From Bacteroidota bacterium (GTDB lineage: Bacteria; Bacteroidota; Bacteroidia; AKYH767-A; 2013-40CM-41-45): a stretch of DNA of 64,000 nt. A model generated the notes under the pieces. It had not been told where the DNA came from. It ran no database searches and was given only the letters and a program-made list of their open reading frames with translations. The translations under genes were made by a program, and so were the position numbers. The stretch lies in contig JANOVM010000024.1 in NCBI GenBank assembly GCA_031417395.1, positions 1,491 to 65,490 of the forward strand, written 5' to 3'. Shown one piece after another: positions 9,054-61,021 of the stretch; position 1 is the stretch's first letter, and each line of letters begins with the position of its first letter.

Positions 9054-9083
9054 AAGAATGCACGAACTTGTTCGTGCATTCTT
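9054..9083 (+). terminator. Perfect inverted repeat after the LytTR gene, likely terminator
   Basis: AAGAATGCACGAA-CTTG-TTCGTGCATTCTT. Confidence 0.75.
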
Positions 9084-9200
9084 CATTTAGTCCTGTTTCA
9101 TATTTTTTATGATGAAAATTCAGTATAGTATTCATTAATTGATTATTTTCTAATTTATACGACATATATATCTGGAAATCAATATTATATAATCATTTTT

Positions 9201-12555: not shown

Positions 12556-14565
12556 ATGAAACAAAGAAAATCCAGAATTGCTTTACTCACCAATTTGAAA
12601 ATGACTTTCAGATTACGGTTGATTTTACCTGTAGTTTCTATAGGACTTTTAGTGTACTTTTTTCTTTATTTTAATGTGGGAACTCCGAAAATAGCTAAAG
12701 CAGGAACTGAATCACTTTCTTCAGGTTCCTATATTATAAACATGGGAGTATCCCCTCAAACATACAATAACGGTTTGAAGCCTTATGGTATGGTGTATGA
12801 TTTGATGGTAAATTATAAAGTTCCGGTGAAATGGATTATAGACCCTACTAAATCAAAAGATGGTACTGATTTTATTTATTCCGGTACATCCTATAAAGGA
12901 GGACCATTTATTATACCCGCTGAATATATTAATTCAACCATTACCGGCAGAATATCTTATTGGGCATCTCAGGGAGTTTCCGGTTTATATACAACAACTG
13001 CTATTAGCGTTCCGGTTTATGCAACACTAACAAATTTTCCACGCATAATAATCGATACAGTTTCAAAAAACGAAAACATTATTACCAATTACTTTGGTAA
13101 TGCTTTAATTCCTTCAAGTGCTTATACTAAAGGCTCTCCATCATTTCTTACTCTGTGTCATGATTTATGGATTAATCCCCACGGCGATCCTAACTGGACT
13201 ACTCATGGTTATCTTTATGACCTGGTAACAGTGGCGAAGAGCTTTGTTTGGATTCAATGCCACGCTGTAAGTGTGACAGAGGGTATTGCTAATTCGTCTT
13301 CTCCATTTCAGAAACTTAATTTTTTAACTACTAACGGACTTAAGTGTTATAGTAATAGTAAATGTGGTTCAGGAGTTACAGAAACGCATACAGGAAATTC
13401 TTCGGCACCTTATACCCTTTTTTATCCTACTGATCCCGTAATGCAATTTATTGGGACTATGGATGGTGCTTGTAGTGGCGGATCAGAAAAATGGTTTCAG
13501 CCCCAATCAACCGGAAGCTGGAGAAGTACAACGAAAAGACTGGTTACTACTGCAACAGGAACGTCTCCCAATGAAGGTGTACTAATGGTATACGGTCCTG
13601 CCTATGGTGATACAACTAATGGATATGTTATGTATGAAGGTGGACATAACATCGACGGTAATGGAACTACCGCTGAAAAGGTTTCCGCGCAAAGAGCTTT
13701 TTTTAATTTCGTTTTACTTGCCGGAACTAAAAAGCAATTGGCTATCGACAATGTTGTGACACCATCTACTATTTACTCTCAGGAATCAAAGGCAGTATCA
13801 TTAAGTGTTTCCGGTGGTACTCCCGGTTATACGTTTACCTGGAGCTGTTCCCTGGGAGGGACATTTACTAATAATCGTAATGCTTCCACAACATTTAGGG
13901 CACCTACAGTAAATGTTACTACTTCAGGTGTCATAACATGTACTGTTGTTGATAATTGCTCGAGACAAAATTTCATTTCTCGCCCTATTACAATATATTC
14001 AACACTGCCAATTTCTTTGAAATCATTTTATGGTAAATTTAAAGAGGATAAAGTAGAACTCAACTGGATTGTAGCGTCAGAGGTGAATAACGATTACTTT
14101 TCCCTGGAACGTAGTTTTGATGGAGTTAATTATACCGAAATCGGAAGGGTTGCCGGGTCTAAGAACAGTGTGACAGATAAAAGATATGATTTTATTGATT
14201 ATTCACCCGGTGACAATAAAAATTATTACCGTTTAAAACAAACCGATTTTGATGGGAATTCAAAAACGTTTGATCCGATTTTTATTAAAGGGTATAGTTT
14301 TGGAAATAAAAAGAGTAAAACGGTTTACCTTCCAAACCCATTTACGGATAAGTTTGACATTGATTATTATTCTGACATATCAACTACCATTGATTTCACG
14401 CTGATGGATCGCTCCGGAAATATTGTCCGTAAACAATCTATTGTTTGTAAGCAGGGATTAAATAATTTTCAATTCAATGACCTGACTGATCTTTCGCAAG
14501 GTATTTATTATGCTGTTTTTAACCGGAACGAAGAGAGAGAAATAATAAGGTTGTTAAAGTACTAA
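12556..14565 (+). CDS. T9SS-secreted protein with long basic/hydrophobic leader, unknown N-terminal domain, PKD-like domain and type A CTD
   Basis: LPISLKSF..WIVASEVNN..YYRLKQTDFDG Ig domain; PNPF..GIYY CTD. Confidence 0.82.
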   Translation: MKQRKSRIALLTNLKMTFRLRLILPVVSIGLLVYFFLYFNVGTPKIAKAGTESLSSGSYIINMGVSPQTYNNGLKPYGMVYDLMVNYKVPVKWIIDPTKSKDGTDFIYSGTSYKGGPFIIPAEYINSTITGRISYWASQGVSGLYTTTAISVPVYATLTNFPRIIIDTVSKNENIITNYFGNALIPSSAYTKGSPSFLTLCHDLWINPHGDPNWTTHGYLYDLVTVAKSFVWIQCHAVSVTEGIANSSSPFQKLNFLTTNGLKCYSNSKCGSGVTETHTGNSSAPYTLFYPTDPVMQFIGTMDGACSGGSEKWFQPQSTGSWRSTTKRLVTTATGTSPNEGVLMVYGPAYGDTTNGYVMYEGGHNIDGNGTTAEKVSAQRAFFNFVLLAGTKKQLAIDNVVTPSTIYSQESKAVSLSVSGGTPGYTFTWSCSLGGTFTNNRNASTTFRAPTVNVTTSGVITCTVVDNCSRQNFISRPITIYSTLPISLKSFYGKFKEDKVELNWIVASEVNNDYFSLERSFDGVNYTEIGRVAGSKNSVTDKRYDFIDYSPGDNKNYYRLKQTDFDGNSKTFDPIFIKGYSFGNKKSKTVYLPNPFTDKFDIDYYSDISTTIDFTLMDRSGNIVRKQSIVCKQGLNNFQFNDLTDLSQGIYYAVFNRNEEREIIRLLKY

Positions 14566-39773: not shown

Positions 39774-39845
39774 GGCCCGTTCGTCTAGGGGTTAGGACAT
39801 CTCCCTTTCACGGAGGAAACGCGGGTTCGATTCCCGCACGGGCTA
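39774..39845 (+). tRNA. tRNA-Glu (TTC)
   Basis: GGCCCGT/ACGGGCT acceptor stem, anticodon loop CTTTCAC, T-loop GGTTCGATTCC; CCA not encoded. Confidence 0.97.
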
Positions 39846-39880
39846 CTAAACCCTATTTTTAGAAGCATTTAAACCAAGTC

Positions 39881-39903
39881 AAACCGCTCAAAACGAGCGG
39901 TTT
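39881..39903 (+). terminator. Hairpin terminator downstream of the tRNA, supplied by the element
   Basis: AAACCGCTC-AAAAC-GAGCGGTTT followed by a T-rich run. Confidence 0.7.
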
Positions 39904-39947
39904 TCTTGTTTTTAGTAAGTTCATGTTTTCCCTTGTTATCACATTAA

Positions 39948-39969
39948 TTGTTACTTGGTTGTTACTTAT
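39948..39969 (+). repeat. Integrase arm-type sites (left)
   Basis: TTGTTACTtgGTTGTTACTTAT, 20/22 identical to 46166-46187; inverted AGTAACAA at 40083. Confidence 0.75.
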
Positions 39970-40102
39970 GATAGAAAAGTAAGTATGTTTGTGATAACAA
40001 AATCCAACCAAAAGAAAGAAAGGGAAAAGATACGTGAAAGCCAAATCAACAGAGGGAAATCAAGTATTAGTATTAATAACGGAGTAACAAAAAAAGCAAC
40101 TT

Positions 40103-41179
40103 ATGAGTGTCACTTTAAGAAGGAAAAAAAACAGTGATGGAAGTACTTCTCAGTACTTAGACATCTACCATAACAGTCAAAGAACCTATGAGTTTCTAGC
40201 AGATTGTAAGCTATTCAAGCCGTCCTCGCCACTTGACAGGAAAGATAACCGTGATCGTGTAGAGCTTGCAGAAAGAATCAGAATGAAGCGAGAGCAGCAA
40301 ATTCAGAGCGATGAATATGACATATCACCGGCCTTCAAAATTGGGATTGATTTTATAAAGCTATTCGATAATTACTTGGAACGCTACACTAAAAAAGATA
40401 AACGAATTGTATCTGCATGTTTAAAGCAATTCAAAGATTACATGGTGGAGGAGGGACATAAGAAACTTACTACAAAACAGATCAACGGGAAAGTTGTTAA
40501 TCAATTCAAGGAACACTTAGAAAAAACTCTTAATGGTGAAACTCCTGCGAATTACTTCAAAAAATTTAAACGGGTTTTAAAAACTGCAATGATAGATAAG
40601 AATATTTCAGCATCATTAGCACTTGAAATAAATGACATCAGTATAAAATCTGAAACTGGAATAAAAAAGGATATTCTGACTTATGAGGAAATACAAGATC
40701 TTGCCTCGACACAAATGACAAACAAAGAAGTAAAGCGAGCTTTTCTTTTTTCGTGCTTCACAGGGTTAAGATTTTGTGATATAATTAATCTAAAGTGGAG
40801 GCATGTACAGGGCAAGACTCTGAACCTCGTACAACAAAAAACACAGGTTGCAGTATCAATAAATCTAAATAAGACGGCATTAAACTTATTAGGTGAGAAA
40901 CAGGACGCAAATAAATTTGTTTTCAATTTACCCTCACATACTGCATGTATTAAAGGAATTAAGAAATGGTGTACAAACGCAGGTATCACAAAAAAAATAA
41001 CGTGGCATTGTGCAAGACATTCTTTTGCAACAGGAATTATTTTTTATGGAAGCGATGTAAAAAACGCTAGTGCATTACTCGGACATAAATCACTTGCATA
41101 CACCGATAGATATTTGAGAGTAGTAGATTCATTGAAGGAGAAAGCAGTTGAGAATCTACCGGAATTGAATTTATTATAA
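40103..41179 (+). CDS. Tyrosine recombinase / integrase (Bacteroidota Arm-DNA-bind_5 / SAM-like type)
   Basis: YLDIY N-terminus; FSCFTGLRFCD (R), QKT (K), HCARHSFAT (HxxR), LLGH, TDRY (Y). Confidence 0.97.
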   Translation: MSVTLRRKKNSDGSTSQYLDIYHNSQRTYEFLADCKLFKPSSPLDRKDNRDRVELAERIRMKREQQIQSDEYDISPAFKIGIDFIKLFDNYLERYTKKDKRIVSACLKQFKDYMVEEGHKKLTTKQINGKVVNQFKEHLEKTLNGETPANYFKKFKRVLKTAMIDKNISASLALEINDISIKSETGIKKDILTYEEIQDLASTQMTNKEVKRAFLFSCFTGLRFCDIINLKWRHVQGKTLNLVQQKTQVAVSINLNKTALNLLGEKQDANKFVFNLPSHTACIKGIKKWCTNAGITKKITWHCARHSFATGIIFYGSDVKNASALLGHKSLAYTDRYLRVVDSLKEKAVENLPELNLL

Positions 41180-41190
41180 CCTGTTAAACT

Positions 41191-42078
41191 ATGGCTATGA
41201 AGAAAACAGAAGACAAAACAGACGAGTTAAAAACCCCTGAACAGTGGATGACAACAGAATCACCATCGGAGCTAGAGAAAAGTATTCAAAGTTGCGAAAC
41301 AGCGATGCGAATTATAAATAGAAGTATTGAAATAGCAGGAGGAAAAGGAATACCTATAAGTCAAGGCTATCTTATAGAAAATCAAGCGAGAGTTGATATT
41401 TACTTTATCAATCTTGAGAAAGCATTTCTAACCGGCCTTGAAGATGATAGCATAACTCCAAAGGGTAATTGGTTTAATCAATTCGAAATGATTGCTGTGA
41501 ACGGAATTGATAAAGGGACAGAGAGAAAAAATAGTCCATTTGAAAAAAATGAATTAACGGAATATATCATCAGTAAATTTACTTCACTGAAAAACACAAT
41601 TGCAAGTTGTAGGAAAATCCATACTGAGAACATTAGGCGTAACAAAAACAATGCTCCATTATCGCAGGACAAAAACAATGTATCATATAATCTGATTGAA
41701 TTGAATTATACTCCAGTACAACAGGTAGAAATAATACAATTTTTATTTGATGAACTCAATCAAAAATTGTTTAATACTAGCTATGAGATATTTGTAAGGC
41801 ATTTTATTGAAGGTGAATCAATATTAGAAAAAATAATATGGATTGGAACTGAGCAACAAATTAAAGCGCTATTCAAATGGTTAGATGAAAAACAGATTAT
41901 CATAACTACTGATATAAATATTTTAATCAAGAATCATTTTGTCAATAAAAAGAGAAGGGAATTTAAGTGTAAACAACTTAGTGTTGTTTTGAGCAAAAGC
42001 GATTATAGTTTTGATAATCTGAAAATAATACCTCCTCTTACTAAAAAGTTAGAAAAGTTAGTGCTAACTTTTAACTAA
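41191..42078 (+). CDS. Hypothetical protein with C-terminal RteC-like domain, probable element regulator
   Basis: IIWIGTEQQIKALFKWL resembles the W-x-G-(S/T/N)...L..L motif of RteC-like C-termini; it lies between int and xis. Confidence 0.55.
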   Translation: MAMKKTEDKTDELKTPEQWMTTESPSELEKSIQSCETAMRIINRSIEIAGGKGIPISQGYLIENQARVDIYFINLEKAFLTGLEDDSITPKGNWFNQFEMIAVNGIDKGTERKNSPFEKNELTEYIISKFTSLKNTIASCRKIHTENIRRNKNNAPLSQDKNNVSYNLIELNYTPVQQVEIIQFLFDELNQKLFNTSYEIFVRHFIEGESILEKIIWIGTEQQIKALFKWLDEKQIIITTDINILIKNHFVNKKRREFKCKQLSVVLSKSDYSFDNLKIIPPLTKKLEKLVLTFN

Positions 42079-42130
42079 CCTACACTAACCCCATTTCCTA
42101 TTCTTATTTACTTTTTTTGCACTTGCTAAC
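42044..42130. promoter_or_regulatory. GTTAG/CTAAC operator-like array upstream of xis
   Basis: GTTAG at 42048 and 42057; CTAAC at 42064, 42075, 42085 and 42126; core palindrome AAAAGTTAG-TG-CTAACTTTT. Confidence 0.55.
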
Positions 42131-42144
42131 TAAAACTTAAAGCA

Positions 42145-42447
42145 ATGGTGGAAAAAGAAATTTTACAAGAACTCCACAGTATTAAAACAATACTGTCAGA
42201 GCAAAACATAAATAGAAAAGACGTGCTCAATTTTAATGAAGCCGTGAAATTTATTGATGTTTCTTCCTCATATCTGTATAAACTTACATCCTCTGGGAAG
42301 ATACCTCACTACAAGCCACAGGGCAAGAAAATTTTTTTCAGTCGTGTAGAATTGGAAGCATGGCTTTTAACTAACCCCGTAACTTCATCAGATGCAATTG
42401 AAATAAAAGCATCTACTCATGTGGCATTAAATGGTGATAGAAAATGA
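42145..42447 (+). CDS. Excisionase / HTH_17 (MerR-like) DNA-binding protein
   Basis: VLNFNEAVKFIDVSSSYLYKLTS.GKIPHYKPQGKKIFFSR.ELEAWL. Confidence 0.92.
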   Translation: MVEKEILQELHSIKTILSEQNINRKDVLNFNEAVKFIDVSSSYLYKLTSSGKIPHYKPQGKKIFFSRVELEAWLLTNPVTSSDAIEIKASTHVALNGDRK

Positions 42448-42530
42448 ACCCATTTCAAAAAATAAGGGGTGCGGTTTCCCGCGTCCCCTTTTGTCCTAAA
42501 ACGATTACAGGGCTAACTGCAAACGTTTGA
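42444..42530 (+). CDS. 28-aa leader peptide translationally coupled between xis and the rep-like gene
   Basis: MNPFQKIRGAVSRVPFCPKTITGLTANV*. Its ATG overlaps the xis stop (ATGA) and its TGA overlaps the next gene's TTG start (TTGA). Confidence 0.5.
   Translation: MNPFQKIRGAVSRVPFCPKTITGLTANV
42457..42513 (-). ncRNA. Putative counter-transcribed antisense RNA (ctRNA)
   Basis: Minus-strand -7-like AACGTTTG (42520-42527), then AAGGGG-AC-GCGG-GAAA-CCGC-A-CCCCTT-ATTTTTT hairpin and U-tract. Confidence 0.5.
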
Positions 42531-43207
42531 GTAAAGATACTAAGTATTTTACTTTCCCCATTGGAATGTTAACCAATGCACAGGCAGATATATCAAAAGT
42601 CTGTGAGAGCATTATTGATTATTCGTTATTCATGCACGCGAAAAAATTAGAACACGGTACACAGATAAAAAAAATCAAAGAAGCTGCTAATTTCTATGGT
42701 TATACTTTGGGCAATCTAAGGAAAACTATTAATGAAGGCGAAAATATTCTAAGTAAGAACTTCAAAGTAGTTACGAGTATTAACAAAGATACTATTGAAG
42801 ATTTCCGAATGAACCATAAAACACCGTTTGAAATTATAGTCTTTATATCGTTTTGCGCCCTTCGGAGTATCATCGGAAAGAAACCATACTGTAAGCTCGA
42901 AAACAAGTTTCTACTCTCACGGATGGCAGGATTTGAAAAGAGCGTATCAATTCAGGAGCTACCGGGATCAATACGATCTTATGCAAATGAATACCAAATG
43001 CGAAAAATAAAAAAAGAACTTATCAATCATTGGGGACTTAAACACTATTCACGGTTCACCCGTGGGTTTTATGTATCGTTTACAATGCCAAAGGTTGAAC
43101 TAATTTTCCATGCAGAGAAAAAACGAAAAAAATATCTTGAAAAAGAGAAATCAAATGAACAAAAAGAAGCACTCAAAAAAGTCATGTTGCAATTATACGG
43201 ATCGTAA
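42527..43207 (+). CDS. Hypothetical basic protein, putative replication initiator
   Basis: TTG start, K-rich, no recognised motif. The function is inferred from the upstream ctRNA/leader and downstream iteron-like repeats. Confidence 0.5.
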   Translation: MSKDTKYFTFPIGMLTNAQADISKVCESIIDYSLFMHAKKLEHGTQIKKIKEAANFYGYTLGNLRKTINEGENILSKNFKVVTSINKDTIEDFRMNHKTPFEIIVFISFCALRSIIGKKPYCKLENKFLLSRMAGFEKSVSIQELPGSIRSYANEYQMRKIKKELINHWGLKHYSRFTRGFYVSFTMPKVELIFHAEKKRKKYLEKEKSNEQKEALKKVMLQLYGS

Positions 43208-43212
43208 CCATA

Positions 43213-43449
43213 ACACGACCTATAAAAGGAAAAGAAGTGGATTGTAGTAATGAATCAATACTGAGTTGATATTAATTTCAAAAAGTACACGACCTATAAA
43301 AAGATATTGTAGTAAGATACTGTAAACAGAAATTCTAATAAGATACTTTAAAAAGAAAATATAAAAGTGTGTTCTCTTTTTATTTTTTTTTTCAAAAAAA
43401 AGAGAAAATAAAAAAAAACGTCGCGGGTTGTTGTTTGATACTAACCCGC
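43213..43449. other. Putative origin of replication (iterons, AT-rich tract, hairpin)
   Basis: ACACGACCTATAAAA x2 (43213, 43287); ATTGTAGTAA x2 (43241, 43306); TAAGATACT x2 (43313, 43339); poly-T/poly-A tract ~43371-43418; GCGGGTT...AACCCGC hairpin. Confidence 0.55.
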
Positions 43450-43503
43450 TACTCTTAATACCGGAGTTAAAAAAACTCTGTAAATTACAGGTAGAAAACA
43501 GAG

Positions 43504-43833
43504 ATGAAATATAAAGAAGGAAGTAGTGGTAATCCAAACGGCCGGCCAAAAGGATCGAAGAATAAGGTTGGGAGCGATCTTCGAGAAAGAATTATAAATT
43601 TTCTTTCCAATGAATTTGAAAATGTTCAAAACGATTTTCAGAAACTCAAACCCCATGAACGGATTCGTTTGTATTGTGATCTCTTACAATATGGCTTACC
43701 GAAACTTCAAGCAATGACATTAGATGCAGATATAACAAGTAATGAGGAAATAAATCTGCCTAGGCAAGTAATATTCAATAATCCACATTGCACCTGTTCA
43801 GCTTCTGTTTTAAGGGGAGATCAAAAAGAGTAG
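43504..43833 (+). CDS. DUF5681-family protein (terminase small subunit-like N-terminus)
   Basis: KEGSSGNPNGRPKGSKNK signature followed by a helical domain ending in YGLPKL. Confidence 0.75.
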   Translation: MKYKEGSSGNPNGRPKGSKNKVGSDLRERIINFLSNEFENVQNDFQKLKPHERIRLYCDLLQYGLPKLQAMTLDADITSNEEINLPRQVIFNNPHCTCSASVLRGDQKE

Positions 43834-43893
43834 GCTAAAAATTTTGTAGGTGAATAGGTTATTAAATTTTTTATACATTTGTTTCTGATATAA

Positions 43894-44052
43894 AAATATA
43901 GGCGTACTTATACTGCTACCGAATCAGCAACATTTTAATGCAGTTATACACAAGTCTAAGAATCGCTTCACGTTACGGCGTGGGGTTTTCTTATTTGTGT
44001 ATTCGCTCGTTGCTGAGCGTGGTAGCGATAAGTTTAGCTCCACGTCTTATTT
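43894..44052 (+). ncRNA. Long rod-like structured RNA leader
   Basis: Nested helices GGCGT/ACGTC, ACTTAT/ATAAGT, TGCTACC/GGTAGCG, TCAGCAAC/GTTGCTGA, ATACACAAGT/ATTTGTGTAT, TAAGAA/TTCTTA, GCTTCACG/CGTGGGGT; promoter TACATTTG at 43874. Confidence 0.65.
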
Positions 44053-44094
44053 TAACAAATCCGCTAGGGGCTTTGCGGATGCAACACAAAACCC

Positions 44095-44634
44095 ATGAAA
44101 AAAATTATGCTTTTATCAATGTTCATTTTAATCGTTTTATGTTCTGCATTTTCTCAGTGTACAACGAAGACAGACCCATATACCAAAACGGTATCAACCG
44201 TCTCAAAAGCAGTTAGATTTTACTATGAAAATGAAATTGCGTTTGGAAAATTTACAAGCCCTCCTGATTCAATCCATGAAACCACCACCGATCTTTATAT
44301 TGTTTTTTTTTATCACAAGAAGAGTGGAATACATTCAATCGTAGTTAGAGAGGGTGGAGAATTTAATATCATGCTGAAGGATAGTTCCATTATTAAAGGG
44401 TATTCGACTGAGTTAACTGTAGGAGAAACCAAAAGCACCTATATGTTTAACAAAAATCAATACGATACTTATATAAACTGTTCCTACTCTTTCAAAAAGG
44501 AAGATTTGCAGAAACTCTTAGCCTCTGAATTAATTGGTTTCAGATGTTATTTTGCAGATGACATATTTGATGGAAAAGTTAAACCAAAATTTAAAGAATC
44601 AGTTCTGAATGCACTAAAATGTATTGTAGATTAA
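44095..44634 (+). CDS. Exported hypothetical protein (element cargo)
   Basis: Signal peptide ending SAFS-QC; KTDPYT motif; terminal LKCI (possible N-to-C disulfide). Confidence 0.75.
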   Translation: MKKIMLLSMFILIVLCSAFSQCTTKTDPYTKTVSTVSKAVRFYYENEIAFGKFTSPPDSIHETTTDLYIVFFYHKKSGIHSIVVREGGEFNIMLKDSSIIKGYSTELTVGETKSTYMFNKNQYDTYINCSYSFKKEDLQKLLASELIGFRCYFADDIFDGKVKPKFKESVLNALKCIVD

Positions 44635-44755
44635 TCTAACGTTGCATCAATAGCTCAATCCTCCGCTTCATCACATAATAAATATTTACGCCCGCTTTTT
44701 GGCCACGCATGTAAAAGACAAAGAAGAAAATGACATCACTTAAATAATAAATAAA

Positions 44756-45922
44756 ATGAAAAAAATAATTACACTTTTAATTTTACTTTATTCATTTGTG
44801 AATATTGTAAATGCAGATAGTTGGACACAGAAATCTAACATAGGAGGAAGATACGGTGCAGTTGGTTTTTCTATTGGATCAAAAGGATATATCGGTACAG
44901 GATACAATAATAATTTTTTGAAAGATTTTTGGGAGTGGGATCAATCAACAAATGTATGGACACAAAAGGCGGACTTTGGAGGGATTCCTAGAGATGGTGC
45001 GGTTGGTTTTTCTATTGGAGCAAAAGGATATATTGGAGTTGGACATGACAGCTCTTCAAATTATCAAGATTTTTGGGAGTGGGATCAATCAACAAATGTA
45101 TGGACACAAAAGGCGGACTTTGGAGGAGGCATAAGATGGAATCCTAGAGGATTTTCAATAGGAACCAAAGGATATATTGGAACGGGTGAAGATAGCCTTT
45201 ATAGACAAGATTTTTGGGAGTGGGATCAATCAACAAATGTATGGACACAGAAAACCGCCTTTGGAGGGATAGCAAGAAGTGTAGACGTAGCTTTTTCGAT
45301 CGGTACAAAAGGGTATATAGGAACCGGATGGAATGGTGTTACTTGCATTCAGGATTTTTGGGAATGGAATCAATCAACTAATGTATGGACTCAGAAGGCT
45401 GACTTTGGTGGAGGATTAAGGAGAGAGGCCGTTGGTTTTTCAATCGGTACAAAAGGGTATATAGGAACCGGATGGAATGGTGTTATTTATAAACTTGATT
45501 TTTGGGAGTGGGATCAATCAACAAATGTATGGATACAGAAGGCTGACTTTGGTGGGGTAGCTAGAACAAGTGCAGTTGGTTTTTCAATCGGTACAAAAGG
45601 GTATATCGGTACAGGATACAATGTCTTAAATGATTTCTGGGAATGGAATTCAACTACAACAAGTATGAATGAAGTGATAGAACAAAATGAAGTTTCTGTT
45701 TATCCTAATCCAGTAAATGATTTTCTAAATATTCACATTTCAAAAAATAAGTTGAATGAGGAACTTATAATTATTGATATGTCAGGCAAAGAGGTTTACA
45801 AGAAAATGATTAGTGGACTTGATAATAGAATTGATATTTCCAAATTGAGTAATGGAATTTATATTTATCAGTTAAGAAATATTAATGAGAAGTTTCAAGG
45901 AAAATTTTTGATTGAGAAATAA
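44756..45922 (+). CDS. Six-bladed Kelch-like beta-propeller with T9SS type A CTD (element cargo)
   Basis: Six ~48-aa repeats (FSIGTKGYIGTG..DFWEW.QSTNVWTQKADFGG); YPNP..GIY..KFLIEK CTD. Confidence 0.92.
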   Translation: MKKIITLLILLYSFVNIVNADSWTQKSNIGGRYGAVGFSIGSKGYIGTGYNNNFLKDFWEWDQSTNVWTQKADFGGIPRDGAVGFSIGAKGYIGVGHDSSSNYQDFWEWDQSTNVWTQKADFGGGIRWNPRGFSIGTKGYIGTGEDSLYRQDFWEWDQSTNVWTQKTAFGGIARSVDVAFSIGTKGYIGTGWNGVTCIQDFWEWNQSTNVWTQKADFGGGLRREAVGFSIGTKGYIGTGWNGVIYKLDFWEWDQSTNVWIQKADFGGVARTSAVGFSIGTKGYIGTGYNVLNDFWEWNSTTTSMNEVIEQNEVSVYPNPVNDFLNIHISKNKLNEELIIIDMSGKEVYKKMISGLDNRIDISKLSNGIYIYQLRNINEKFQGKFLIEK

Positions 45923-46165
45923 AACTTTAACATTGAAATAAGATTCATTTTTAGTAGTAAGAAAACTAAAATTGGGTTGAATTTGATTTAAACAGTTTAT
46001 TAAGGAATCTATAACTCTAACCTCCGCTTTGATGAATTATGCGAGAGGTATCGCGAGGCCAAGCGTAGAGAAAGGCAGACATAGTTTTGAGACTGAAAAA
46101 TGAATTATGACACCAGTACGAGGGACAAAATAATTAAAGGTTAAAATCAGGGGAAATTGAATCTT

Positions 46166-46187
46166 TTGTTACTCTGTTGTTACTTAT
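46166..46187 (+). repeat. Integrase arm-type sites (right)
   Basis: TTGTTACTctGTTGTTACTTAT, about 60 bp inside attR. Confidence 0.75.
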
Positions 46188-46246
46188 AACCCAGTTTATT
46201 ATTATAATTAATTGATAAATAGTTGATTATGGGCTAGTATTGATAG

Positions 46247-46259
46247 CCGCACGGGCTAC
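46247..46259 (+). repeat. attR core (duplicated tRNA-Glu 3' end)
   Basis: CCGCACGGGCTAC identical to 39834-39846. Confidence 0.93.
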
Positions 46260-46546: not shown

Positions 46547-48046
46547 TTAGTTTTCAGGAAAATAAATATCAAACGTTGCGCCTTTCTTTAACTCGCTTGT
46601 TGCAATGATAATGCCGCTGTGATTCTCAACTATTTTTTTTACGATGGCAAGTCCGATGCCAGTGCCTCCATATACTTCTTTGCCGTGAAGTTTTTGAAAC
46701 ACTTCAAAAATCCGTTCGCTGAAATGAGATTCAAAGCCAATGCCGTTATCTTTGACGGTTATATGGCAATAATCTTTTTCAGGTGAAAGTTTTTCGCTAA
46801 TTAATTTATTGCCTTTTACTATGCCGCTCTTTATAATGATGTGTGAGTGTATGTCGGGCTGTGAAAATTTAAGGGCATTGCTTATAAGGTTGTACATAAG
46901 CTGGCGAAACTGAAAAGCGATTATGTTGGCAGTGCCGAGTTCAGTGGCTTCGATGGTGGCGTGCTTTTCCTGGATGGTATCCTTTAGTTCGGATTTTACT
47001 TCTTCTACAATTATTTTTAGGTCTGTCTTTTCAAACTTGAGCTCAGTAGTGGCAATGCGGGAGAAGGCAAGTAAATCGTCAATGAGTTGTTGCATTCTTC
47101 CGGCTGCTAATTGCATCCGCTGAAAATTATATTTGCCATTGTCAGTCAGCGTTTCTTTTTCCAATAAGATAGTTGCAAAGGTTTGTATTTTGCGCAATGG
47201 CTCCTGCAAATCATGACTCGATATATAGGTGAATGCAAGCAATTCTTTATTAGCAATAATTAACTCAGCGGCACGTTTTCCCTTCTCTTCGTTTTGGAAG
47301 GCAAGTTCTTTGTTAGCTATGATTAATTCTGCTGCCCGTTTTTCTTTTTCTTCGTTTTGAAAAGCAAGTTCTTTGTTGGCAATGCCTAACTCTGCCGCTC
47401 TTTTTTCTTTTTCCTCGTTTTGAAAGGCAAGTTCTTTATTGGCAATTCCCAGCTCTGCTGCCCGTTTTTCTTTTTCTTCGTTTTGAAAGGCAAGTTCTTT
47501 GTTGGCAATGATTAATTCTTCTGCCCGTTTTTCTTTCTCCTTGTTTTGAAAGATAAGTTCTTTGTTGGCAATGCCCAGCTCTGCTGCACGCTTTTCTTTC
47601 TCCGCATTTTGAAAGATAAGTTCTTTGTTGGCAATGCCCAGTTCTGCTGCACGCTTTTCTTTCTCTATGTTTTGAAAAACAAGTTCTTTATTGGCAATGC
47701 TTAACTCTGCTGCCCGCTTCCCTTTTTCTTCGTCTTCGAAGACAAGTTCTTTGTTGGCAATGCCTAGCTCTGCGGCACGTTTTCCCTTTTCTTCATCCTG
47801 AAAGGCAAGTTCTATGTTGGCAATGCCCAACTCTGCTGCACGTTTTCCCTTTTCCTCGTCCTGAAAGGCAAGCTCTATGTTGGCAATGCCTAACTCAGCT
47901 GCTCGTTTCACTTTCTCTTCTTTCTGAAAGACAAGTTCTTTGCGGGCAATAATTAACTCTGCTAAAAGCTTTTCATATTCTTCTTTTTGAAAAGCAAGTT
48001 CTGCGCGAACAATAGTTACCTCATCTGTATTCTTTGTTTTAATCAT
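46547..48046 (-). CDS. Cytoplasmic histidine kinase (phytochrome/Cph1-like HisKA-HATPase) whose N-terminal half is a 21-aa coiled-coil repeat array
   Basis: SHDLQEPLRK H-box, NLISNALKF, DNGIGF, GTGIGLAI. Confidence 0.92.
   Translation of the reverse strand: MIKTKNTDEVTIVRAELAFQKEEYEKLLAELIIARKELVFQKEEKVKRAAELGIANIELAFQDEEKGKRAAELGIANIELAFQDEEKGKRAAELGIANKELVFEDEEKGKRAAELSIANKELVFQNIEKEKRAAELGIANKELIFQNAEKEKRAAELGIANKELIFQNKEKEKRAEELIIANKELAFQNEEKEKRAAELGIANKELAFQNEEKEKRAAELGIANKELAFQNEEKEKRAAELIIANKELAFQNEEKGKRAAELIIANKELLAFTYISSHDLQEPLRKIQTFATILLEKETLTDNGKYNFQRMQLAAGRMQQLIDDLLAFSRIATTELKFEKTDLKIIVEEVKSELKDTIQEKHATIEATELGTANIIAFQFRQLMYNLISNALKFSQPDIHSHIIIKSGIVKGNKLISEKLSPEKDYCHITVKDNGIGFESHFSERIFEVFQKLHGKEVYGGTGIGLAIVKKIVENHSGIIIATSELKKGATFDIYFPEN
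47261..48016 (-). repeat. 12 tandem 63-bp coding repeats (consensus xIANKELAFQNEEKEKRAAEL)
   Basis: Counted directly in the protein and the DNA. Confidence 0.95.
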
Positions 48047-60484: not shown

Positions 60485-61021
60485 TTATTCAACAATAAAC
60501 TTTCCCCGCATCATAGAATAATGTCCCGGGTAGCTGCAAATAAATTCATACGTCCCTTTTTCCGGTGCAGGAAACGTTATTGTTGTTGATTTACCCGGAG
60601 GAGCAATGCTAGTTGCCACATAAACTTCTTTAGTTTTTGGAACATAATTTTCAGCCACTCCTGCTTTTAAACCCTTTGCAGCAACACTATCGGCAGCGCC
60701 TAAGTCAATCAAAACAAAGTTGTGCTGCATGGAAGCATCCGTGGCTTCATTCACAAGAGTAAGTTTGACCGTGCATCCTGATTTAACTTTGATTTCAGTA
60801 AGGTTGAATTTCATTTCGGCCATATTGTTTCCTTTGGCAAGCAGGTTTATTTCTGTTACCGGTGCAGAAGGGTCAATCTTTGAAGCATCGTACGTTGATT
60901 CAGTCATTAGTGACGAAGAAGGGTTTTCAACAGGAGCTTCTTTTTTCTGTTCCGGCTGATTACAGGAAGTCAGAGGATAGAGACCAATTAAGGTTAATAG
61001 TATTGCAATTAAGTTTTTCAT
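60485..61021 (-). CDS. Azurin/auracyanin-like blue copper lipoprotein
   Basis: Lipobox LTSC; type-1 Cu ligands HNFVL...CSYPGHYSMM. Confidence 0.92.
   Translation of the reverse strand: MKNLIAILLTLIGLYPLTSCNQPEQKKEAPVENPSSSLMTESTYDASKIDPSAPVTEINLLAKGNNMAEMKFNLTEIKVKSGCTVKLTLVNEATDASMQHNFVLIDLGAADSVAAKGLKAGVAENYVPKTKEVYVATSIAPPGKSTTITFPAPEKGTYEFICSYPGHYSMMRGKFIVE

Follow-up and report, generated by a model that had tools for sequence, protein, structure and literature searches.

The 64,000-nt stretch of Bacteroidota DNA analyzed here (the window) carries, just 5' to a gene for a predicted exported protein, a member of an RNA family that is uncatalogued, absent from Rfam 15 and, judging from the genome sequences searched, widespread in Bacteroidia. 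Two folds of this RNA, a long rod and a stand-alone hairpin formed by the 3' half, are both conserved with compensatory changes, and both are under selection. Since the two folds use the same bases, they are mutually exclusive. We lean, with moderate confidence, towards the view that this two-fold leader RNA acts as an RNA-only, P4 CI-like negative-feedback attenuator of the gene downstream.

The RNA sits within a 6.4-kb element integrated at tRNA-Glu. The ends of the element are formed by the two copies of a repeat, D19 (39829-39846 and 46242-46259), identical at 16 of 18 nt. The features of the element, other than the RNA itself, are the following.

39829-39846 (+): attL, the 3' end of tRNA-Glu (39774-39846; ARAGORN) and left end of the element; repeat D19
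40103-41179 (+): tyrosine integrase of the element (Pfam Phage_integrase, SAM-like and Arm domains)
42145-42447 (+): HTH_17 excisionase-like gene
42527-43207 (+): probable replication initiator of 226 aa, common to a family of small Bacteroidota integrative elements
43504-43833 (+): DUF5681 gene (Pfam PF18932), the last backbone gene 5' to the RNA
44095-44634 (+): predicted exported protein of 179 aa without known family, the first gene 3' to the RNA
44756-45922 (+): Kelch-repeat protein with a T9SS sorting domain (Pfam), the second cargo gene
46242-46259 (+): attR, the partner copy of repeat D19

The 226-aa initiator-like protein, which has no Pfam, PHROG or PADLOC family, gave 46 matches, the window's own included, one relative being named 'Initiator Replication protein' (UniRef); related loci number 56. 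Elements of this family (window 39847-46241; loci L012-L069) have the initiator-like gene, behind which a DUF5681 gene and exported cargo of variable kind often lie. Just 3' of the initiator-like gene, 18-nt direct repeats (43213-43230 and 43287-43304) and an AT-rich segment (43340-43420) make up a candidate replication origin, and a 22-nt repeat inside both element ends (39948-39969 and 46166-46187) provides candidate integrase arm-binding sites. Outside the element, a histidine kinase gene (46547-48046, - strand) encodes a protein whose N-terminal part is a long series of near-identical repeats. Of 54 related-element loci collected via the rep-like protein, only one had the RNA (L026, a weak match of 18.7 bits judged true on inspection). 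Thus, the RNA appears to travel with the cargo and not with the element backbone.

The only database match of the 179-aa exported protein was its own cluster, and its neighbors in the ESM Atlas were hypothetical proteins, with Bacteroidota the commonest phylum where one was recorded. Strain variants in the 44095-44634 frame comprised 15 synonymous and 13 non-synonymous changes (15/28 synonymous). An overlapping ORF of 92 codons, passing through the RNA, was dismissed as a gene, since its 15 strain variants included 13 non-synonymous ones, one of them a stop. An antitoxin RNA, one of the roles suggested when the DNA was read from its sequence alone, found no support: this ORF lacks coding selection, and toxin-like ORFs do not recur downstream of the RNA. 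In a search for type I toxin-antitoxin arrangements, no recurring small ORF was seen among ORFs of at least 45 aa at 49 loci; shorter peptides were covered as start-stop motifs.

The rod is exceptionally stable. The segment 43894-44052 has a predicted folding energy of -56.3 kcal/mol on the + strand (z -6.5), a value reached by none of 200 dinucleotide shuffles, and is the most stable among 798 tiles of 160 nt in the window; the - strand gives -44.1 kcal/mol (z -4.4). The minimum-energy rod (43893-44053) consists of eight helices of 5-10 bp and one weak 3-bp helix, with 9 G-U pairs and most pairs having a probability above 0.9. The nested helices and the + strand preference described in the sequence-only reading are therefore real, as is the second hairpin that it placed before the ATG at 44095; the 3' end of this hairpin (44059-44080) lies 14 nt before the start codon. 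The predicted features of the RNA and its flanks are the following.

43874-43881 (+): predicted Bacteroidota-type -7 promoter box, TACATTTG, supported by enrichment in the family
43893-43973 (+): 5' arm (leader); alone, a predicted weak hairpin with the target in its loop; in the rod, paired to the whole 3' half
43924-43931 (+): upstream target ('address', seqA-like), 8-nt complement of the 3'-half loop
43965-43986 (+): apex hairpin of the rod, with six conserved pairs; it sequesters the 5' strand of the terminator-like stem and is a predicted antiterminator
43977-44046 (+): 3' half of about 70 nt with its own fold; candidate terminator and trans-acting small RNA
44047-44053 (+): U-tract directly 3' of the outer stem (6 U in 8 nt)
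44059-44080 (+): second small hairpin with a purine-rich GGRRC loop (pair probability ~0.8)
44081-44085 (+): possible second target (seqC-like), of 5 nt only and not significant in the window's member

The -7 box had also been proposed from the sequence. It is present, but by itself is weak evidence, since such boxes occur at a background of 0.55 per kb per strand in the window's genome and this one has no TTTG within 30 nt upstream; its better support comes from the family, in which a box is found at the corresponding place in 26 of 48 members, compared with 5% in shuffles. A host in Bacteroidota is indicated by this type of promoter together with the T9SS domains.

Nothing in the window reached an Rfam gathering score except tRNA, and scans by E-value gave chance-level matches only, so that the RNA remains, as first thought, without a known Rfam family. 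BTnc201 (RF04177) was rejected, as it scored 17 bits over the RNA against a cut-off of 105. DUF805 and DUF805b (RF03081, RF02914) were rejected as well: their matches in L297 adjoin the family RNA and none lies on it. The sub-threshold matches to these two models are at L297:1370-1462 (-), L297:565-597 (-) and L305:1355-1387 (-), two of the three being directly downstream of family members.

Relatives of the RNA were found by structure. BLAST-type searches with the window RNA detected no homologue in its own genome, where it is single copy, nor in 60 relatives, 400 genomes of the phylum, phages or plasmids; the matches obtained reflected generic promoter sequence or chance. In 401 genomes searched by pattern, matches stayed at the control level. 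A single-sequence model of the 3'-half fold located a true homologue in another family of the same class, and scanning metagenomes by pattern supplied a third sequence; of the 22 metagenome loci obtained, two were true, L134 being new and the other being identical to L112. Covariance modeling yielded about 50 relatives. A model built from three sequences (R3), whose matches were inspected individually, detected the RNA in 22 of 150 genomes of the class Bacteroidia (the genome used for the model included), in 17 of 146 genomes of the order (the window's own included) and in 7 of 150 genomes of the phylum, all of the latter belonging to the same class among the matches listed; these three genome samples overlap. 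The family analyses used 49 loci, or 48 once a near-duplicate (L308) was dropped, and two further members were found later. No member exceeds 53% identity to the window's copy over the full-length alignment. Pattern scans of viral contigs returned nothing or chance matches, with no confirmed member in viral contigs or phages; among the matches listed, none of 80 viral-contig loci scored with R3. One member (L331) is on a mobilizable plasmid of Chryseobacterium shandongense (NZ_CP033916.1, about 60726-60800), downstream of a gene of the lexA family oriented divergently from dinB-dnaE; this is the only carrier found in a named, cultured organism. One island (L321) has two members, at 9075-9153 (-) and 14103-14185 (+), with different addresses, one of them before a type III methyltransferase-like gene. 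In the openly accessible literature searched, there was no description of such an RNA family in Bacteroidota.

Both folds covary among the relatives. For the rod, an independent MAFFT/RNAalifold consensus of 49 sequences contained 24 pairs, 20 of which had two-sided changes. The second fold lies in the 3' half (43977-44046), which has an 11-bp outer stem, a 6-bp middle helix and a 5-bp hairpin with a variable loop at 44009-44014, and which folds without the 5' arm at -31 kcal/mol. In the alignment 92.8% of the cells of this fold are paired, compared with 81.1% in shuffles and 32-57% in slid controls. Compensatory (two-sided) changes were found in 14 of its 20 pairs among 40 distinct sequences, and the covariation score was reached by none of 500 shuffles; this test used 41 of the family matches, in an alignment fitted to the covariance model. 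The 5' arm mirrors the 3' half, though not perfectly. In most members the rod has the lower energy of the two folds, the difference commonly being 10-25 kcal/mol and, for the window's member, 17 kcal/mol (-58.2 versus -41.2 for the alternative). The rod of about 160 nt reported at the outset is genuine but is only one of two conserved folds, and the likely active species is the 3' half of about 70 nt. Across the family, G-U pairs account for 346 of the 2756 rod pairs, and 42 of 48 members have the better fold on the sense strand, both of which favor an RNA over a DNA structure. Among related strains, the RNA varied less than the next ORF in one run (X7; 2/151 versus 10/151, Fisher p 0.035), and in another (X5) the difference was not significant (p 0.19); one of the listed strain changes hits a basal pair of the rod.

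A further property of the family is the loop of the 3' half, which is unpaired (0.98) and varies in sequence between members. A perfect complement of this loop of at least 7 nt is found in a member's own leader in 42 of 48 cases, compared with 3.2% in the leaders of other members, and the longest matches form 41 distinct strings. Six of the 48 members have no 7-nt match in the leader, and one of the family (L283) has none at all. Folded alone, the 5' arm makes a weaker mirror hairpin, and the center of the target is mostly unpaired in 41 of 43 members scored. A target displayed in one loop opposite an address displayed in another has the geometry of a kissing pair, as far as the predicted structures go. 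In the 6.4-kb element of the window, the 7- and 8-nt targets occur once, in the leader.

A subset of members appears to have a second target downstream. Here a complement of at least 6 nt is seen in 9 of 48 members against 7% expected (permutation p 0.0008, in a set whose related members are not independent); it is shorter than 6 nt in the other 39, and 5 nt in the window's member. The second target is clearest before type III methyltransferase and type IIG genes, in L266, L284, L285, L276 and the second member in L321, where it is placed some 20 nt upstream of the start codon and differs in step with the loop; these five members have four different addresses. Six genomes (G022, G081, G552, G589, G596 and G628) have co-resident members, whose addresses are all different, as is also expected by chance given this many variants.

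Of the 48 members, 42 have a U-tract (at least 6 U in 8 nt) behind the stem, L273 being one without it, and 40 have a co-directional ORF that begins no more than 260 nt away. The gene that comes next is almost always on the same strand, mostly with no room for a promoter of its own. By a crude rule, 22 of the 40 co-directional ORFs are signal-peptide-like. The downstream ORFs include exported proteins, six restriction-modification genes, two TonB-dependent receptors and several T9SS or repeat proteins. Upstream neighbors include integrases, IS1595 transposases, a relaxase, VapE and AbiEii, and also housekeeping genes. Of 20 wider regions, 6 have an integrase no more than about 9 kb away, compared with 3 of 214 tiles of the window's genome, an enrichment that is indicative only, as some queries came from the same loci and one genome served as background. 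There is no mobile-element gene within about 9 kb in 11 of the 20 regions.

Two accessory features accompany some members. A start-stop or one-codon mini-ORF occurs 6-42 nt before the foot of the rod in 17 of 48, compared with 6.9% in shuffles, and a ribosome parked on it could bias the choice of fold; the short-leader member of the window has no mini-ORF of the form ATG-(0-1 codon)-stop. The mini-ORF lies behind an A-rich leader in, for example, L266, L274, L277, L295, L296, L300 and L309. A GGRRC motif is found within 60 nt downstream in 16 of 48 members (the window's and 15 others) against 7% expected, and is thus an accessory element of the family; its loop hairpin sits some 15-30 nt upstream of the start codon, in most cases that of a gene for an exported protein, and is possibly a separate translation- or export-linked motif.

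From these observations we derive the following model, in which the folds, the covariation and the address match are computed and transcription, processing, action in trans and the direction of control are inferred. The 5' arm would serve as antiterminator and the 3' half as terminator. In a cell without the RNA, the nascent transcript would form the apex hairpin and zip into the rod, hiding the terminator stem, and the cargo would be transcribed. Some transcripts would terminate at the U-tract and be processed, leaving a stable 3' half of about 70 nt as a small RNA. The free 3' half would then kiss the target loop of new transcripts and pair along the 5' arm, leaving the nascent 3' half to adopt the terminator fold; in some members, the small RNA would also cover the second target beside the start codon. 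As a result, the cargo would be expressed in a burst on entry into a new host and damped thereafter, and the variable address would stop co-resident modules from silencing each other. The entire 5' arm is complementary to the free 3' half, with a predicted duplex energy of -54.5 kcal/mol in the window's member and family means of -46 for cognate and -27 for non-cognate pairs. Cofolding of the free 3' half with the nascent transcript gives the terminator fold in the nascent RNA, with a margin of 3 kcal/mol only. It should be noted that the direction of control is inferred from predicted free energies, and folding kinetics could reverse it. A terminator with a stem of about 70 nt is longer than usual. 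Since 11 of the 20 regions are without a mobile gene, arrival in a new host cannot be the sole setting.

The covariation of the upstream target with the loop can be explained equally well by pairing in cis, and a switch that acts only in cis has a minor but real chance of being the correct explanation. The choice between rod and terminator would then be made by folding kinetics, pausing or a ribosome on the tiny upstream ORF, with the match of loop and target as an intramolecular nucleation site; the excess of mini-ORFs before the rod foot fits such a switch, although the window's member has none. A purely cis switch gives no reason for a hypervariable loop opposite a loop-displayed target, or for a co-varying second target downstream of the terminator in a subset of members. 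Reversed polarity, in which the terminated or silent fold is the default and a short RNA turns the cargo on in trans, as for IsrK, we consider unlikely. The hairpin of the 5' arm forms first and hides part of the apex strand, which could favor the terminator kinetically, and IsrK is described as trans-activating its read-through isoform in the portion of PMC4825925 that deals with it. Nevertheless, the rod is the lower-energy fold in most members by the differences given above, the loop-bearing half complements the antiterminator arm so that its binding should favor termination, and the IsrK small RNA is the 5' part of its transcript.

Slightly less probable again is a small-RNA gene whose targets lie elsewhere, in phages, sister elements or host mRNAs, with the leader as a sheath or processing aid and the downstream gene incidental. 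The strong unit that runs from promoter to U-tract is conserved far beyond its gene context, and the variable addresses resemble immunity groups, both of which would suit such a gene; against it are the single occurrence of the target, in the leader, within the element, the co-directional next gene that mostly lacks room for its own promoter, and the failure of pattern and BLAST searches to confirm a member in viral contigs or phages. That the structure is a palindrome acting as DNA (a MITE, an attC-like site or a single-strand origin), or a chance fold, is very improbable. Both strands do fold better than shuffles and the module precedes unrelated genes, but the G-U share of the rod pairs, the advantage of the sense strand, the covariation of two alternative folds, the single copy in the window's genome and an orientation fixed by promoter and U-tract all speak for an RNA.

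The attenuator reading places the family beside several known RNAs. The c4 and CI RNAs are processed by RNase P to a stable RNA of about 77-79 nt. The sequence-only reading had proposed a C4/CI-like RNA or a riboregulator of cargo; the anatomy agrees with this, as the loop is antisense to the RNA's own leader, the alternative fold looks like a terminator and 40 of 48 members precede a gene on the same strand, but membership of the C4 and CI Rfam families does not hold. The Rfam models for C4, CI and IsrK had no match at gathering score in the window or on the RNA in 20 homologue loci, and none at E-values up to 3 in 20 loci (six loci are in both sets of 20). Traits of the C4, CI and IsrK RNAs that recur here are, by sequence prediction, a structured RNA in the 5' leader of the gene thought to be controlled (the box in 26 of 48 members, the fold, and the ORF in 40 of 48) and an antisense loop with an upstream complement (42 of 48 versus 3.2%), both sides mostly unpaired. 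No phage antirepressor, kil/icd or replication operon was found downstream, where the genes are those for exported proteins, restriction-modification and TonB receptors.

As summarized in the relevant part of PMC4825925, the processed leader RNA CI of satellite phage P4 pairs with an upstream seqA and a downstream seqC and causes premature termination. The family likewise has an upstream target in most members and, apparently, a downstream one in a subset. Unlike P4 CI, it has no Rfam match, its whole 5' arm mirrors the small RNA, whose stem and U-tract look like a terminator, and it would control cargo (exported proteins, restriction-modification genes, TonB receptors) rather than phage replication genes, in hosts of the class Bacteroidia. 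The c4 RNA of P1/P7 (RF01695; c4-a1b1 motif) has antisense sequences in loops, with specificity variants that lead to heteroimmunity, according to the section of PMC12197685 on this RNA; loop antisense sequences and putative specificity variants are found in the present family also. c4 acts by blocking the translation of ant mRNA, and the c4 entry of PMC2864571 lists it for Proteobacteria and phages. Behind the RNA studied here there is no ant- or icd-like gene. IsrK, of the Salmonella prophage Gifsy-1, has short and read-through isoforms from one promoter and two alternative folds, the short form acting in trans on the long, in the account of PMC4825925. Two alternative predicted folds are common to IsrK and the family, but IsrK is a 5' part that activates translation, whereas the loop-bearing half of the family is 3' and its predicted effect is repression by termination.

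In the attenuators of pT181 and pIP501, and in CopA/CopT, loop-loop recognition flips the nascent leader into a terminator, and loop changes define specificity groups. Antisense RNAs of the pT181/pIP501 and CopA/CopT type are transcribed from the opposite strand, in the pT181/pIP501 type over the leader of rep. The family differs from pT181/pIP501 in having the antisense half in the same transcript, and the window RNA is downstream of a rep-like gene; no minus-strand TAnnTTTG, as for an opposite-strand antisense promoter, was found between 42791 and 44956. RteR of the Bacteroides element CTnDOT is a mobile-element RNA of about 90 nt with its own promoter, which acts on the tra operon by proposed premature termination (PMC3809561, in the passage on RteR); the self-complementary leader and variable address of the family are not part of RteR's description in that passage.

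On this analysis, the family appears to be an RNA of the CI/c4 kind used before cargo genes, outside the C4 and CI Rfam families. The comparative evidence for a two-state switch with a hypervariable self-address is unusually strong. Tentatively, and with somewhat less than even confidence, we suggest that it is a portable, protein-free expression timer: a cassette of about 160 nt with dozens of orthogonal addresses, placed before the cargo that an island acquires, be it restriction-modification systems, secreted and surface proteins or TonB receptors, that lets this cargo be expressed once on arrival and then turns it off through an RNA processed from its own leader, and whose resident RNAs could silence incoming elements with the same address. 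The present alignments would allow the family to be added to Rfam, and, if the attenuator reading is right, about 40 natural address variants would be at hand as orthogonal RNA regulators in a phylum for which genetic tools are scarce. If the suggestion is right, element-level immunity would exist outside phages, and the enterobacterial phage mechanism of P4 CI, P1 c4 and IsrK would have a counterpart, unrelated in sequence, in about one of every eight sampled Bacteroidia genomes, repurposed there to switch genes gained by horizontal transfer in general. It would also offer a testable answer to how type III and type IIG restriction-modification genes and surface proteins are timed in a new host.
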